DNA of 64,000 nucleotides, taken from IMG/VR virus record IMGVR_UViG_2974610597_000001, one strand, 5' to 3'. Numbering within the stretch: position 1 is the stretch's first letter; every line of letters begins with the position of its first letter. Below the pieces are notes generated by a model. That model was given only the letters and a program-made list of their open reading frames with translations. It was not told the origin of the DNA and searched no databases. Position numbers and translations under genes: made by a program. This DNA comes from Escherichia virus ESCO5. Taxonomy: Duplodnaviria; Heunggongvirae; Uroviricota; Caudoviricetes. Positions 34,150-64,000 of this stretch are shown piece by piece.

Positions 34150-35223
34150 TTAAACAGCAGCTTCTTCTTTTTCAGGGAAGATAAAGCTTGCAATAACACC
34201 AAGAGATAATGTGCCTAGAACAATCATCAGACTTACGTTAGGGGAAATATCATGCGGGAGGAATGACCACTTGGCATGAAGTGTTTCACCGAACGGGTGA
34301 TACATAAGTTTAGCACCAACAAACACCAGAACCACAGCAACAGCTTTCTCTAAGTGAACCAGATATTTCACAGCTACACTTAACACAAAGAAAAGTGCAC
34401 GTAAACCAAGAACAGCCATCAGCATTGCAGAATAAACTAGCAGAGGTTCTTGTGTCACACCGATTACAGCCGGAACTGAATCAAAAGAGAAGACAATATC
34501 TGTAAGCTCAATAACAAACACACAAAGAAGAGCAGGAGTTGCATATTTAATACCATTCTTAATGGTAATGAACTTTTCACCATCTAGTGCATTGTGCACA
34601 GGCAGAACTTTACCTACTAAACGAACAGCCCAATGCTTAGAGTAATCAATATCCTCTTCTTCGTCACCACCTTTGATGATAGCCACGGCAGACCAAGCTA
34701 CAATCAAACCGAACAACACTTGGACCGACCAATGAAGGTTAAACAAAGCGGTCCCTGCTGCAACAAAAATACCTCGGAAGACAATGGCTCCTGCAATCCC
34801 CCAAAGTAAAATCTTATGTTGAAGATGTGTGCTCTTAATTCCAAAGCTTGCAAAAATTGCCATGAATACCATCAGGTTATCTACAGAAAGACTCTTTTCC
34901 AACACATAGCCACTTAGGAAAAGCGCGGCAAACTCTTTACCATGTTCTACCCAAATGAATGCGTAATATCCTAAAGCTAAAGCAATCCAAAAAACAGACC
35001 AAAGCAAAGCAGATTTAATTCCAATTTCTTTATTTTTACCATGTTCTACCCAAATGAATGCGTAATATCCTAAAGCTAAAGCAATCCAAAAAACAGACCA
35101 AAGCAAAGCAGATTTAATTCCAATTTCTTTATTCTCTTTATGACCAAAGAAATCGATACCAATAGACAATGCCAAAATACCAACTAAAACAACTACATCA
35201 ATAATTGGGAAACCGAGTTGCAT
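34150..35223 (-). CDS. terC: TerC-family integral membrane protein, containing an in-frame 33-aa tandem duplication
   Basis: 357 aa, multiple TM helices; signature LEKSLSVDNLMVF; segment KNKEIGIKSALLWSVFWIALALGYYAFIWVEHG occurs twice consecutively. Confidence 0.75.
   Translation of the reverse strand: MQLGFPIIDVVVLVGILALSIGIDFFGHKENKEIGIKSALLWSVFWIALALGYYAFIWVEHGKNKEIGIKSALLWSVFWIALALGYYAFIWVEHGKEFAALFLSGYVLEKSLSVDNLMVFMAIFASFGIKSTHLQHKILLWGIAGAIVFRGIFVAAGTALFNLHWSVQVLFGLIVAWSAVAIIKGGDEEEDIDYSKHWAVRLVGKVLPVHNALDGEKFITIKNGIKYATPALLCVFVIELTDIVFSFDSVPAVIGVTQEPLLVYSAMLMAVLGLRALFFVLSVAVKYLVHLEKAVAVVLVFVGAKLMYHPFGETLHAKWSFLPHDISPNVSLMIVLGTLSLGVIASFIFPEKEEAAV
34939..35136. repeat. Near-perfect 99-bp tandem direct duplication inside terC coding sequence
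   Basis: 34939..35037 and 35038..35136 identical over about 95 bp (accatgttctacccaaatgaatgcgtaatatcctaaagctaaagcaatcc...), diverging only in last few bases. Confidence 0.9.
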
Positions 35224-54912: not shown

Positions 54913-55092
54913 ATGGCACGTTTAGCAGACCATGAAATCTTTAAACCTATTCTGAACCACTATGATGAACTTAAGGCAGTGTTGGATTGTTATAGAGAGG
55001 ATGAAGAACGTTTGGAAGTGAATCTTAAGATAGTTCTGATGAAAGCTTTTCAAGACGGGCAAGCTGAAGTCTTAGGAGGCATGAAAAAATGA
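54913..55092 (+). CDS. Small hypothetical protein
   Basis: Start refined to ATG at 54913 after AAAGGAGAAA. Confidence 0.3.
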   Translation: MARLADHEIFKPILNHYDELKAVLDCYREDEERLEVNLKIVLMKAFQDGQAEVLGGMKK

Positions 55093-55631
55093 GAATAACT
55101 GATGAATATGTATTCTTCTTTTCACATAAAGATGTGTTTAGTAATTGGTATATTGCACCCTTTACAGAAACCGAACCAGGTTACAATCAGACATTTAATT
55201 GTGTCGAACAATACATGATGTGGCGTAAAGCTTTGCTTTTTAATGACCACAACACGGCACAGGCTATTCTGACTCATAGTTTGATACGGAAAGATGAGAA
55301 GATCCAAGCTTATTACAAACGTATGGGTAGGGCAGTGTCAGATTTTGATAACAACGTATGGGAAGAGAACCGTGAGCGTATTGTTATGCGAGGTTTATGC
55401 TTGAAATATGTACAGAATCCAGATTTGTATGCAGACTTACACCTTTACCAATACAAAACGTTTGTTGAAGCAAGTCCTTACGATAAGGTTTACGGTATTG
55501 GAATGGGAATGTATGAACCAGGGGTGCTAAATCCGGTCAACTGGAAAGGGCAAAATCTTTTAGGTAAATATCATAACAAACTGATCGAAATACTTTTCCC
55601 AGACAAAATACCGCAAAGACGATATTTGTGA
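55089..55631 (+). CDS. NADAR-domain (YbiA-like) protein
   Basis: 180 aa; FFFSHKDVFSNWYIAPF ... GYNQTFNCVEQYMMWRKALLFND and C-terminal NWKGQNLLGKYHNKLIEIL match conserved NADAR/DUF1768 blocks. Confidence 0.55.
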   Translation: MRITDEYVFFFSHKDVFSNWYIAPFTETEPGYNQTFNCVEQYMMWRKALLFNDHNTAQAILTHSLIRKDEKIQAYYKRMGRAVSDFDNNVWEENRERIVMRGLCLKYVQNPDLYADLHLYQYKTFVEASPYDKVYGIGMGMYEPGVLNPVNWKGQNLLGKYHNKLIEILFPDKIPQRRYL

Positions 55632-55686
55632 TATTTTAACTTTTTTCATTTTTAGAACAAAGGCGTCACTTTGTAGCACAGAAATA

Positions 55687-55722
55687 AGGCTCCTACAGCA
55701 CCGTAGAGAGCCTATTATTTTG
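55687..55722 (+). terminator. Rho-independent terminator ending the plus-strand operon
   Basis: Hairpin AGGCTCCTACAGCACCGTAGAGAGCCT followed by ATTATTTTG. Confidence 0.45.
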
Positions 55723-55875
55723 TCCTATACAAACCCTTGTCTTTTTCAGTTTGCATCACTAGGATTCGATCTGAGTGGGTTCCTGAAGGTCTGCCAATAA
55801 GATTAAAGGTTATCTCAAATTCCCACTACCTATTATCTCAAAAATCCCTCAAATTATTTAAACTTTTTAAGAATT

Positions 55876-56060
55876 TACAAAAGTGAAAGTTGAAAACCAA
55901 AATTTAAAGTTTAGGAAAATTATCTTAAAATGTCAGATACAAAACAAAACTCAAAAGTCAAGGAAAATTTTAAAAATTTTGCGCGCCCACAGTATTTAAA
56001 GTTTTTTTGCTTTTACAAAAATGAAAGTACAAAAGCAAAATTTAAAGTTTACAAAAATTT
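55876..56060. repeat. AT-rich direct repeats (about 45 bp, 2 full plus 1 partial copy)
   Basis: acaaaagtgaaagttgaaaaccaaaatttaaagtttaggaaaat (55876-) and acaaaaatgaaagtacaaaagcaaaatttaaagtttacaaaaat (56013-), with related partial copy around 55940. Confidence 0.7.
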
Positions 56061-56069
56061 ATGCAGATG

Positions 56070-56185
56070 GGAATGAGAAGAGTTCTCATATGGAAATGCA
56101 AATGATAATGATTCGCATTTAGGTTTATAAATGAGATTGATTCTTATTTGATAAGGTAAATGATAATCATTCTCATTTAGAGAAT
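56070..56185. repeat. Array of four about 29-bp tandem repeats, each carrying an imperfect palindrome AAATGAnA...TTCnCATTT (iteron/operator-like)
   Basis: Units begin near 56072, 56101, 56129, 56158: aatgagaagagttctcat / aatgataatgattcgcattt / aatgagattgattcttattt / aatgataatcattctcattt. Confidence 0.7.
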
Positions 56186-56436
56186 GACGCGCAGGGGCGG
56201 TGTTTGTCTCGCGCTCCCGTGTCCCCTCGCCATGTAATAAGAATAACAGATCCAGCCAGGAAAGCAAGCGATTATTTTATCTTTACATTTCTTTACAAAT
56301 ATATAGCGCCCAGCCTACCGGCGATCAACCTTCCAACCAGCGCCCTGGTATGTTAGCCCCGCCTTTACGCCGTGGGGGTGGCGCTTCCTCTTCTGTATGT
56401 AAAACAGTATAAGCCCGATCCCTGGGCTTGTCAAGA

Positions 56437-56703
56437 TTATTTTTTGTTTTCTTGCCAGGATAGGACACCTAACCAAAAATGCATATCGCCCCGCGCCCCT
56501 GGTGGGATCTTGCTTTCCCCGCCGCCACTGCAAGCCCATAAATAACCATCAGCGAACGGATCAAAGTTTTCTATTTCTTCCACCTTATGATCGCCCAGGT
56601 TGAGAACTGTTTCAACCTTTAAGCCCGTTGCGCTTGCTACCTGGTGCACCGTGCCGCCTTGCCAGCCTAATGAGTGCATAAGGTGTAATGTAGTATTCGT
56701 CAT
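56437..56703 (-). CDS. Hypothetical protein encoded in GC-rich island, opposite strand to flanking genes
   Basis: 88-aa ORF MTNTTLHLMHSLGWQGGTVHQVASATG...; ATG at 56703 preceded by AAAGAAAGGG; local GC clearly above phage average. Confidence 0.3.
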   Translation of the reverse strand: MTNTTLHLMHSLGWQGGTVHQVASATGLKVETVLNLGDHKVEEIENFDPFADGYLWACSGGGESKIPPGARGDMHFWLGVLSWQENKK

Positions 56704-56811
56704 GGTGTCGCCCTTTCTTTGTTGTGCGCCCTGGTTGGCGCGGTAGAAAGATGATAGCCCTTTCTTTTATATATAGCAAGCAAAAAGAAAATAAAAAGAT
56801 TGAAAAAGTGA

Positions 56812-56870
56812 TTGACGTTCGCCAGGTGGCGGCATAATATTTACCACGTAGGGCGGCAATGGTGCCGCTC
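56812..56870 (+). promoter_or_regulatory. Promoter-hairpin cassette 1
   Basis: TTGACG - 17 nt - TAATAT, then TTACCACGTA and hairpin GGGCGGCA-ATGG-TGCCGCTC. Confidence 0.55.
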
Positions 56871-56889
56871 ATTATTTGGAGTTAAAATC

Positions 56890-57087
56890 ATGGCAACATT
56901 GCACATTGTGGCGAAAGCTGGACAAATAAACGTGGTAGTAAACGGTTTTACTGAGTTCAGTCATCCCCAGGATGATCATGAAACGGTTTTATCTTTCATT
57001 GATTCTCTGTTAGAAATGGGAGTCATTACAGAAGACCAGCACGCTACAAAATGCAAGCGCGTTAATCAAATTGCAGGGATAGAATAA
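56890..57087 (+). CDS. Small early-type protein
   Basis: Start refined to ATG 56890 (SD GGAG upstream); ORF-track start 56812 would lie within the promoter. Confidence 0.4.
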   Translation: MATLHIVAKAGQINVVVNGFTEFSHPQDDHETVLSFIDSLLEMGVITEDQHATKCKRVNQIAGIE

Positions 57088-57093
57088 AAAGTA

Positions 57094-57155
57094 TTGACAA
57101 CAAACAACAACCTGATAAGATGTATCACATAGGGCGGCGGAATGGTCCACCGCTC
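57094..57155 (+). promoter_or_regulatory. Promoter-hairpin cassette 2
   Basis: TTGACA - 16 nt - TAAGAT, then GTATCACATA and hairpin GGGCGGCGG...CCACCGCTC. Confidence 0.5.
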
Positions 57156-57178
57156 ACAACAGAAGAGAGATTATAATC

Positions 57179-57451
57179 ATGGCATCATATAGCGCAACAA
57201 TGATCGTAGCTGGCACCACTGGTAAACCTATGAGCGGTGGCGGATCTTTCGCAAATATCAACATTGACGGGCGTTTATCCCTGGACGCAGCGATCACCGT
57301 GGCGCGGGAAACATTTAAGAAAGAATGTAAATTCAATAAACAAGATTATCTCGGTTTTGCTATTGAAAAAACCGCGCGCTTTGTTGATTATAAAAGCCCG
57401 AAGATGGTTGATACTACACTAAAAGCGCAAGATGTAGCGTTTTTGCTTTAA
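57179..57451 (+). CDS. Small early-type protein
   Basis: 90-aa ORF after SD AGAGAGA. Confidence 0.4.
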   Translation: MASYSATMIVAGTTGKPMSGGGSFANINIDGRLSLDAAITVARETFKKECKFNKQDYLGFAIEKTARFVDYKSPKMVDTTLKAQDVAFLL

Positions 57452-63260: not shown

Positions 63261-63292
63261 GTAAAGAAATGTAAATAATGCGCTATCCCCTA

Positions 63293-63321
63293 TTGACAGG
63301 GGATCGGCGTTATATTATATT
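63293..63321 (+). promoter_or_regulatory. Sigma70-type promoter without downstream hairpin
   Basis: TTGACA - 17 nt - TATATT; -35 embedded in short palindrome CCCCTATTGACAGGGG. Confidence 0.4.
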
Positions 63322-63786: not shown

Positions 63787-63799
63787 TTGACAACAAAAC

Positions 63800-63828
63800 A
63801 AGGGCGCACCAAGCGCCCTTTCTTTTTG
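63800..63828 (+). terminator. Rho-independent terminator
   Basis: AGGGCGCACCAAGCGCCCT followed by TTCTTTTTG. Confidence 0.55.
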
Positions 63829-64000
63829 CCCGAACAATGTTGATAGATTCCGCCTATGAAAAACCGACACAGAACAAAATTGCATAATTTGCGCTATCGA
63901 GCTAATCAACCAGCAAACGAATAACCATACACCCCAGGGTTACAGGCTGTTAGAGAGCTATTTAGAGCGGTTAAAATCGATCAACAACCAACAACAAACA

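Follow-up and report, generated by a model that had tools for sequence, protein, structure and literature searches.

Elements in which repeats and AT-rich DNA lie near a promoter are of a known kind. In phage T7 the primary origin consists of promoters (phi1.1A/B) followed by an AT-rich stretch, and in T4 the origins oriF(uvsY) and oriG(34) combine a promoter with a downstream unwinding element and are primed by an R-loop. Iteron origins (lambda ori, P1 oriR and those of theta plasmids) contain regular direct repeats, classically of 17-22 bp, which lie beside or overlap an AT-rich region, together with an adjacent initiator gene. In T5, Repeat Region 3 carries 66-bp DRE repeats with the calculated shear point of first-step transfer (bioRxiv 10.1101/866236). 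For the rV5-, phAPEC8- and phi92-like phages, the origin and the function of the large noncoding region are undescribed: a literature search for an origin or for transcriptomes of this group returned nothing relevant, the skew analysis of rV5 followed transcription direction only, and the rV5 paper draws a 'non-coding' box (PMC3606486). Here, we have analyzed AT-rich direct repeats in a noncoding region of Escherichia virus ESCO5, using a 64,000-nucleotide stretch of its DNA (IMG/VR record IMGVR_UViG_2974610597_000001; the whole stretch is called the window below). The repeats form a conserved triad of units, and our preferred, still tentative reading is that this triad binds a protein and melts easily, as one arm of a replication origin activated by transcription.

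The AT-rich repeats were confirmed to be real and far beyond chance. The best ungapped self-match of positions 55800-56070 scored 34, compared with 10.0 +/- 1.3 (maximum 15) in 300 dinucleotide-preserving shuffles. A repeat search paired the 72 nt at 55850-55921 with those at 55988-56059 (82% identity) and also identified a 29-nt family of three copies (55893-55921; 55941-55969, 79%; 56031-56059, 90%), and the latter fits the two full copies and one partial copy described in the original prediction, which was made from the sequence alone. Alignment with relatives resolved three units of ~69 bp, designated A, B and C, in place of the unit of about 45 bp first proposed; the shorter figure is the spacing of a core 11-mer, ATTTAAAGTTT. 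Repeats do occupy 55876-56060, where they had been placed, although their true start lies about 25 bp farther left. The repeats and a small tandem repeat beside them are as follows.

55810..55842, no strand: two copies of TTATCTCAAA (55810-55819 and 55833-55842), forming a 24-bp tandem repeat.
55853-55921, no strand: repeat unit A, 69 bp, ATTATTTAAACTTTTT..TTTACAAAAGTGAAAGTTGAAAACCAAAATTTAAAGTTTAGGAAAATT.
55922-55990, no strand: degenerate repeat unit B, 69 bp, in which TTATCTTAAA and the core (diverged, AAAACAAAACTCAAAAGTCAAGGAAAATT) are retained, as is AAAATTTTAAAAATTTTGCGCGCCC, the block before unit C.
55991-56059, no strand: repeat unit C, 69 bp, AGTATTTAAAGTTTTTTTGCTTTTACAAAAATGAAAGTACAAAAGCAAAATTTAAAGTTTACAAAAATT; its likeness to unit A extends to 56059.

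Each ~69-bp unit carries two cores of the ATTTAAAGTTT type. The 11-mer was found at 55902, 55994 and 56040 and, with one mismatch, at 55856; near 55950 it is decayed, and its spacings are 44-48 bp (a period of ~46 bp) both within and between units; no exact copy was present elsewhere in the 64 kb. Within the same 64 kb, the exact 10-mer TTATCTCAAA is confined to 55810-55842, and a third motif of this type, TTATCTTAAA, lies at 55920-55929 inside unit B. The TTATCTCAAA cores are retained in phage phiWec181 despite a surrounding spacer that is only 47-64% identical, and in Klebsiella-type Vequintavirinae-like loci (L010, L017, L020-L024) the corresponding place contains three copies of TATCTCAAA.

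The triad is the left arm of a composite cis-acting module of ~800 bp, which is present once per genome. Over positions 55600-56900 the window is 100% identical to Escherichia phage ESCO5 (KX664695.3; Phapecoctavirus, Stephanstirmvirinae), and near the repeats a window position equals the record position minus 84247. The noncoding stretch that holds the repeats covers 55632-56436, about 0.8 kb rather than the 1.2 kb originally supposed, since 56437-56703 is a conserved gene. The remaining parts of the module and its borders are listed here from left to right.

55687..55715, plus strand: hairpin terminator (AGGCTCCTACAGCACCGTAGAGAGCCT, then ATTATTTTG) that closes the upstream operon; left border of the noncoding module.
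56072-56090, 56101-56119, 56130-56148 and 56159-56177, no strand: four imperfect palindromes of 19-21 bp at an exact 29-bp spacing.
56182..56400, minus strand: conserved GC-rich element, about 51-53% G+C, without an open reading frame (ORF); invariant blocks TCTTTACAnnTCTTTACAAA, CTACCGGCGATC and GTTAGCCCCGCCTTTnCGCCGTGGGGTGGCG.
56406..56434, minus strand: sigma-70-type promoter, TTGACA-17-TATACT, with 11/12 matches the best in the region; it reads toward the palindromes and repeats.
56437-56703, minus strand: conserved gene, an 88-aa ORF (phrog_19316) with function not assigned; right border of the module.

The whole region was present in 68 phage records at >=80% coverage, with about 94-100% identity. 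The informative comparison was with phiWec181, in which the coding sequence (CDS) adjoining the module is 80% identical to that of ESCO5. Identities between ESCO5 and phiWec181 were distributed over the module in the following way.

Unit A: 82.6%.
Unit B: 58.6%.
Unit C: 84.5%.
Spacer 55716-55805: 46.7%.
Palindromes: 60.9%.
GC-rich element: 95.5%.
Leftward promoter: 100%.

As judged from this alignment, units A and C were shown to be under purifying selection, with conservation at the level of coding DNA. Unit A is also identical (100%) in phAPEC8 and tuntematon. In phiWec181, AAAATTTAAAG changed to AAATTCTAAAG in parallel in units A and C, which points to concerted evolution or to co-evolution with a binding partner. 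Neutral AT-rich filler with a recent local duplication would agree with the abundance of AT-rich intergenic DNA and with the decay of unit B (59% to phiWec181). However, this explanation is largely refuted by units A and C being conserved like coding DNA against 47% for the spacer, and by a triad geometry that is kept across subfamilies; we regard it as barely credible. The original prediction was to be given up if, among other things, the region proved not to be conserved; the same findings show that it is conserved. A 48-aa ORF lying over the repeats (55930-56076) was rejected as a gene because its ATG and frame are lost in phiWec181.

The order of the module (terminator, three direct repeats, 1-6 palindromes, GC-rich element, leftward promoter and small minus-strand ORF) was also kept in Justusliebigvirus (alia, Paula), a Klebsiella Stephanstirmvirinae phage, Seunavirus EC152 and an rV5-like Vequintavirus, as well as in 13 of the 15 IMG/VR loci that were retrieved by a motif of the GC-rich element. 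The units themselves are of the TTATTTAAAS..CAAAAsCAAAnTTnAAAG type in Stephanstirmvirinae and of the GGTTCTCGATCG..TCGTATTT type in Vequintavirinae-like phages. Three units with a first-to-third span of 138-142 bp were observed in ESCO5, alia, phi1_175008 and the loci L010, L011, L012, L015 and L016, and the span in an rV5-like phage is 139 bp. The spans, by the two successive spacings, are given below.

ESCO5: 138 bp.
Spacings 67 + 75: 142 bp.
Spacings 74/75 + 67: 141-142 bp.
Spacings 78 + 63: 141 bp.
Spacings 65 + 74: 139 bp.

In addition, Stephanstirmvirinae and Vequintavirinae-like phages share a block, AAAAATTTTT-GCGC(G)CC, in front of the third unit. The near-invariant number and span of the units, together with this shared block, indicate that the triads are positional homologues and not independent inventions, and the turnover of sequence under a fixed geometry is as expected for the binding sites of a co-evolving protein. 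A triad of ~70-bp direct repeats is thus deeply conserved, being present at this position in all rV5-like lineages that were examined, and the ESCO5 repeats represent its Phapecoctavirus version.

Duplex stability was calculated from nearest-neighbour energies at scales of 100, 200 and 300 bp. The least stable duplex of the whole 64 kb was located at 55831-55931, 55851-56051 and 55853-56153, respectively; the minimum, 55831-56153, has 76-81% A+T, a z of 3.3-3.5 and rank 1 at all three scales, and it lies downstream of the conserved promoter. Thus, the unwinding element suggested at first is supported as far as the physical properties of the DNA are concerned. No phasing of AA/TT with a 10-11-bp period could be observed in the triad (band power 0.53 versus a genome mean of 0.45 +/- 0.27, with 28% of the windows scored being equal or higher), and therefore intrinsic curvature or phased A-tracts are not indicated. 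Candidate sigma-70 promoters inside the units were rejected, as they reached 9/12 matches at best, which is typical for AT-rich DNA.

The promoter to the right of the repeats was kept in position and in its hexamers in 13 divergent sequences (TTGACA, TTGCAA or TTGACG with TATACT, TAAACT, TATATT or CATAAT). Its spacer is at the same time the terminator hairpin of the 88-aa ORF, with compensatory changes in four of the five pairs. The GC-rich element that follows was matched in 348 phage records, and an alignment of 14 lineages showed long invariant blocks. Covariation on its minus strand was 0.195 versus 0.127 in shuffles, none of 500 being as high, and the minus-strand helices contain invariant G-U pairs. 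The folding of the element was not significant (z of -1.0 for the minus strand and -0.6 for the plus strand), no Rfam family was found for it, and in the E. coli genomes and plasmids it matched nothing but one phage-like 137-kb 'plasmid'. The element is probably transcribed leftward, a direction favoured by the minus-strand covariation, the invariant G-U pairs and the orientation of an ORF inserted into the element in one locus. In that locus (L022, 6307-7040) the element is split by an insertion of ~730 bp with a short duplicated ATCGCYGG junction, and the insertion encodes, on the minus strand, a 197-aa homing-endonuclease-like ORF whose orientation and strong Shine-Dalgarno sequence suggest that the leftward promoter is active. 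The plus strand has a GC skew of -0.18 to -0.23 over 56200-56600.

A 15-mer of the GC-rich element, GTAAAGAAATGTAAA, occurs twice in identical form, at 56282-56296 (minus strand) and 63261-63275 (plus strand), and has the form GTAAA-N5-GTAAA, which we take to be the CpxR-box pattern. It is invariant in the GC-rich element of all lineages, and its second copy lies upstream of an early-type promoter, TTGACA-17-TATATT, near 63295.

We favour the origin, with the reservation already expressed, because the module is single-copy, its iteron-like repeats are under selection, the stability minimum of the window lies here and is read into from a conserved promoter, the phage has a T7-type replisome (by analogy with the T7 primary origin and with oriF and oriG of T4) and no origin is known for this group of phages. 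The replication genes lie farther left as a leftward block that encodes a family A polymerase, a Toprim-DnaB primase-helicase, SSB and several ribonucleotide reductases, and the T7-like character of the replisome is given by the Pfam families DNA_pol_A, Toprim_2 and DnaB_C. In the proposed sequence of events, the units would be binding sites for a protein, probably phage-encoded. From the leftward sigma-70 promoter (56434-56406), host RNA polymerase would first transcribe the GC-rich element; transcription would then cross the palindromes, which resemble Fur boxes and at which bound host Fur could modulate its passage, and would enter the repeats, where protein binding and low helix stability would open the duplex. 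The T7-type primase-helicase and the family A polymerase would be loaded on the DNA opened in this way.

Compared with the T7 primary origin, the ESCO5 promoter likewise reads into the most AT-rich and least stable DNA of its region, and the replisome is of the same type (family A polymerase and Toprim-DnaB primase-helicase). In contrast, the promoter of ESCO5 is of the host sigma-70 type, there is no sequence similarity, and the AT-rich arm consists of three long repeats, about 340 nt downstream and past the GC-rich element and four palindromes. With oriF and oriG of T4 the module shares a promoter with a downstream segment that is easily melted, and a transcript strand that is the G-richer strand, whereas the distances in ESCO5 are much longer and both repeats and host-factor sites are interposed. 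Its resemblance to iteron origins lies in the regular direct repeats beside or overlapping an AT-rich region and in a lineage-specific repeat sequence with concerted change between copies. However, three units of ~69 bp with cores about 46 bp apart are unlike classical iterons, and no initiator gene was recognised nearby, where the 88-aa ORF was screened.

Several observations weigh against an origin. About 340 nt separate the promoter and its predicted start from the AT-rich arm downstream, with the GC-rich element and the palindromes in between, and an unwinding element within tens of bp of the promoter, as in T7 and T4, is not what we found in ESCO5. Low stability is not universal to the triad, because the Vequintavirinae-like units have only 50-65% A+T. 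Neither DnaA boxes nor IHF consensus sites were found in the module; a search for the DnaA box TTATNCACA within one mismatch returned only one chance-like TTATGCAGA. GATC was only 2-3 fold enriched in Vequintavirinae-like units over a GATC-rich background, and no GATC clustering was present in the ESCO5 units. The 88-aa protein, the sole nearby initiator candidate screened, was without a detectable DNA-binding fold, and it is >90% identical between genera with differing units. Finally, the palindromes are shared with a T5 region thought to stop DNA injection, and not with a known origin.

The palindromes occupy the place (56072-56177) at which an iteron array had been reported. An array is indeed present, but it consists of four imperfect Fur-box-like palindromes rather than iterons. 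Their consensus, AAATGAGAATnATTCTCATTT, had 4 matches versus 0.11 expected. Box 4, TGATAATCATTCTCA, is one mismatch from TGATAATnATTATCA (13/14 specified positions), and with the 7-1-7 consensus two boxes had 1 and 2 mismatches, the other two boxes being weaker. The best match in the window to the Fur-box consensus GATAATGATAATCATTATC (PMC4506495) was 16/19, at 56156 in box 4. The palindromes, and not the repeats, therefore resemble enterobacterial Fur boxes in this 16/19 match to the 19-mer and in forming arrays of adjacent sites; they differ in belonging to a lytic phage, in not lying obviously over a promoter and in their regular 29-bp spacing. Unlike the triad, the palindrome motif was unchanged in all lineages. 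It also forms arrays in the second large noncoding region of ESCO5 (record positions 148338 and 149092, and the junction of the record; L033/L034) and within the terminal repeat reported for phage BME3 (L009, 2458-2799). The two large noncoding regions together contain at least 8 Fur-like boxes per genome. A literature search for Fur boxes in lytic phage genomes or noncoding arrays returned nothing relevant. When the array was compared by BLAST with 5,426 E. coli genomes, only marginal, mixed matches were obtained (E 3-9): one precedes a TonB-dependent receptor, a second is near mntP and further ones are in prophage DNA; these neither prove nor disprove the Fur identity. On the resemblance of the sites, we infer that Fur may bind the palindromes.

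The segment with palindromes 3 and 4 (window 56128-56179) is inverted in tuntematon (L004, about 1992-2043): by a count made by eye, 50/52 positions match the reverse complement, compared with roughly 41-43 in direct orientation. It appears to be a small inversion polymorphism between two inverted-repeat arms. This 52-bp inversion in the neighbouring palindromes was the only rearrangement seen, and the repeats themselves offered no evidence for the recombination hotspot that had been considered. In the rV5-like genus (L032, O157 typing phage 14, 1500-1700), a Fur-like box followed by a GC-rich CGGTGnTTGTCTC hairpin occurs twice in tandem, while the remainder of this element is unlike the version of Stephanstirmvirinae.

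If the palindromes are Fur sites, the triad could be an upstream architectural or regulatory array rather than a replication element. A phage or host nucleoid protein bound to it would, together with Fur, govern how the GC-rich element is transcribed or would insulate the flanking operons, making the module an iron-responsive switch for a noncoding RNA. Several features agree with such a switch: the distance between the last palindrome and the GC-rich element is the same in every lineage, and in Vequintavirinae-like phages this palindrome lies exactly between the hexamers TTGAAT and nAGAAT, 18 bp apart, which is the classical layout of a Fur-repressed promoter. The GC-rich element is moreover the best conserved part of the module and shows some covariation, and the module is situated at the boundary of a terminated operon and the early-gene block. 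However, the -35 hexamer of that plus-strand promoter is poor in ESCO5 and other Stephanstirmvirinae (GTAAAT, GCAAAT), and 'AGAAT' can equally be read as a third Fur half-site. RNA folding was no better than in shuffles on either strand and no Rfam match was obtained, and nothing ties the triad to a promoter, the sigma-70-like matches inside its units being weak (9/12). We therefore consider a switch of this kind unlikely.

Multicopy Fur boxes derepress the Fur regulon, which is the basis of the Fur titration assay. Accordingly, a phage genome at high copy could act as a sponge for host factors, its palindromes titrating Fur and its repeats an AT-binding nucleoid protein such as H-NS, and so derepress useful host genes, for example those of iron uptake for ribonucleotide reductases. 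The number of Fur-like boxes per genome, at least 8 in the two large noncoding regions, and the several ribonucleotide reductases encoded by the phage would suit this idea, which however leaves the strict number of units (3), their span (138-142 bp) and their lineage-specific sequence unexplained, as well as the Vequintavirinae-like units that are not AT-rich. Titration thus seems a very doubtful explanation of the triad.

Outside the group, the array is shared with T5-like phages (for example L025, 1341-1867), with 77-86% identity over 55-90 nt; an unusual variant box, AAATGAGATTGATTCT, the neighbouring ATTCGCATTT box and the spacing are all shared. Palindromes of the module-type motif sit inside the T5 DRE repeats, and a detailed analysis of this T5 region by Davison does not mention Fur (bioRxiv 10.1101/866236). 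Like Repeat Region 3 of T5, the ESCO5 module is a large, conserved stretch of noncoding DNA in which direct repeats and palindromes are nested; the palindromes are shared in sequence, and both regions lie about 9 kb from the genome end beside early genes. The differences are that T5 has DnaA boxes, a 10-kb terminal repeat and other direct repeats (DRD), and that the AT-rich triad is without a counterpart in T5.

The module might accordingly be the counterpart of the T5 injection stop, a nucleoprotein stop or anchor at the envelope that pauses entry after the first ~9 kb of early genes. Besides the shared palindrome array with its variant AAATGAGATTGATTCT and ATTCGCATTT boxes, homology to BME3 places the module about 8-9 kb from the terminal repeat, similar to the 9.6 kb of T5, and only small early genes with sigma-70 promoters lie between the two. 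Against this stand the lack in the module of DnaA boxes, which are a conserved hallmark in Davison's comparison, and the position of the module outside any long terminal repeat. The early ORFs are all small. Furthermore, for rV5-like myoviruses injection in two steps has never been reported, the triad bears no relation to the direct repeats of T5 (TGTGCAAATCCGACA), and the terminus of BME3 is annotated untidily (three copies and Ns). Taken together, an entry pause is clearly improbable. A broader proposal, for which we also see only a slim chance, is that rV5-like myoviruses and T5-like siphoviruses share an unrecognised array in their noncoding regions that binds host Fur and that, with the triad and a leftward-transcribed RNA, would form an iron-sensing switch ~9 kb from the genome end, gating the initiation of replication or stepwise entry. 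If this were true, the 50-year-old T5 injection-stop signal would gain a concrete host factor.

A packaging signal had also been suggested for the repeats, which could then be a recognition site of the pac type, bound by the small terminase. Direct-repeat arrays are typical of terminase recognition sites, and the records of some relatives (phi1_175008, EC152) begin within or beside the module. On the other hand, record starts are arbitrary: that of phiWec181 lies inside a CDS, for which reason its record ends were rejected as physical termini, and the record of phi1_175008 is circular. Within the subfamily, termini have been published only for BME3 (342-bp direct terminal repeats; PMC12210895), and these map to the second noncoding region, about 8-9 kb right of the triad. 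Since the reported termini are this far away, a packaging function of the repeats is highly improbable. The second noncoding region is about 1.5 kb long (window 63790-64000, then ESCO5 record 148089-149268 and 1-360), is rich in A and C, has numerous short runs of CAAC/AACA and includes the homologue of the BME3 terminal repeat.

The phages concerned (rV5-, phAPEC8- and phi92-like) are among the coliphages that are isolated most often and that are most used as phage therapy candidates. Our results define for them a conserved module that can be dissected into triad, Fur-box-like palindromes, GC-rich element and promoter, and, should it be the origin, it would offer a handle for engineering and for ori-plasmid tools. 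Its architecture (three ~70-bp units, a fixed ~141-bp span, a lineage-specific sequence, a Fur-like array shared with T5 and a GC-rich element) was not encountered in the literature searched. The shared palindromes link the module to the unexplained T5 injection-stop region, with host Fur as a candidate factor in phage DNA transactions.

On the left, the module adjoins a plus-strand operon whose last gene (55089-55631) encodes a NADAR-domain protein (Pfam E 1.8e-35). The product name in the ESCO5 record, 'GTP cyclohydrolase II', is a misannotation; by Pfam the protein is of the NADAR-domain (YbiA-like) type and not a cyclohydrolase. A rho-independent terminator is annotated at the position homologous to that of the ESCO5 hairpin in phAPEC8 (by ARNold) and in ASO2A (by TransTermHP/WebGeSTer). 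On the right, the small minus-strand gene at 56437-56703 is followed by a block of small plus-strand genes, so that the module marks the boundary between the terminated operon and the early-gene block. The 88-aa ORF was found in 152 phage records and is specific to Stephanstirmvirinae and a few relatives. Its AlphaFold model has a predicted local distance difference test (pLDDT) score of 94; structure comparison of this model revealed no significant structural neighbour, no Pfam domain was present, and its PHROG is of unknown function. A tRNA scan of the whole 64-kb window found none, and an Rfam scan of 55400-57200 gave chance-level matches only. Apparent contig ends inside the module (L013, L040) were rejected, since they are adjacent pieces of one contig.

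Each of the small plus-strand genes to the right of the module has a strong sigma-70 promoter and a conserved hairpin. The promoters (56812-56870, 57094-57155 and 57455 onward) combine TTGACG or TTGACA with TAATAT or TAAGAT and are followed, just before the ribosome-binding site, by the hairpin TAGGGCGGC..GCCGCTC, which is the motif flagged by PHIRE as a 'phage promoter' in phAPEC8. Elsewhere in the window, positions 34936-35133 contain a perfect 99-bp tandem duplication (33 codons) relative to KX664695.3, in the gene of a TerC-like integral membrane protein, and this duplication shifts the window-to-record coordinates by 99 bp to its left.

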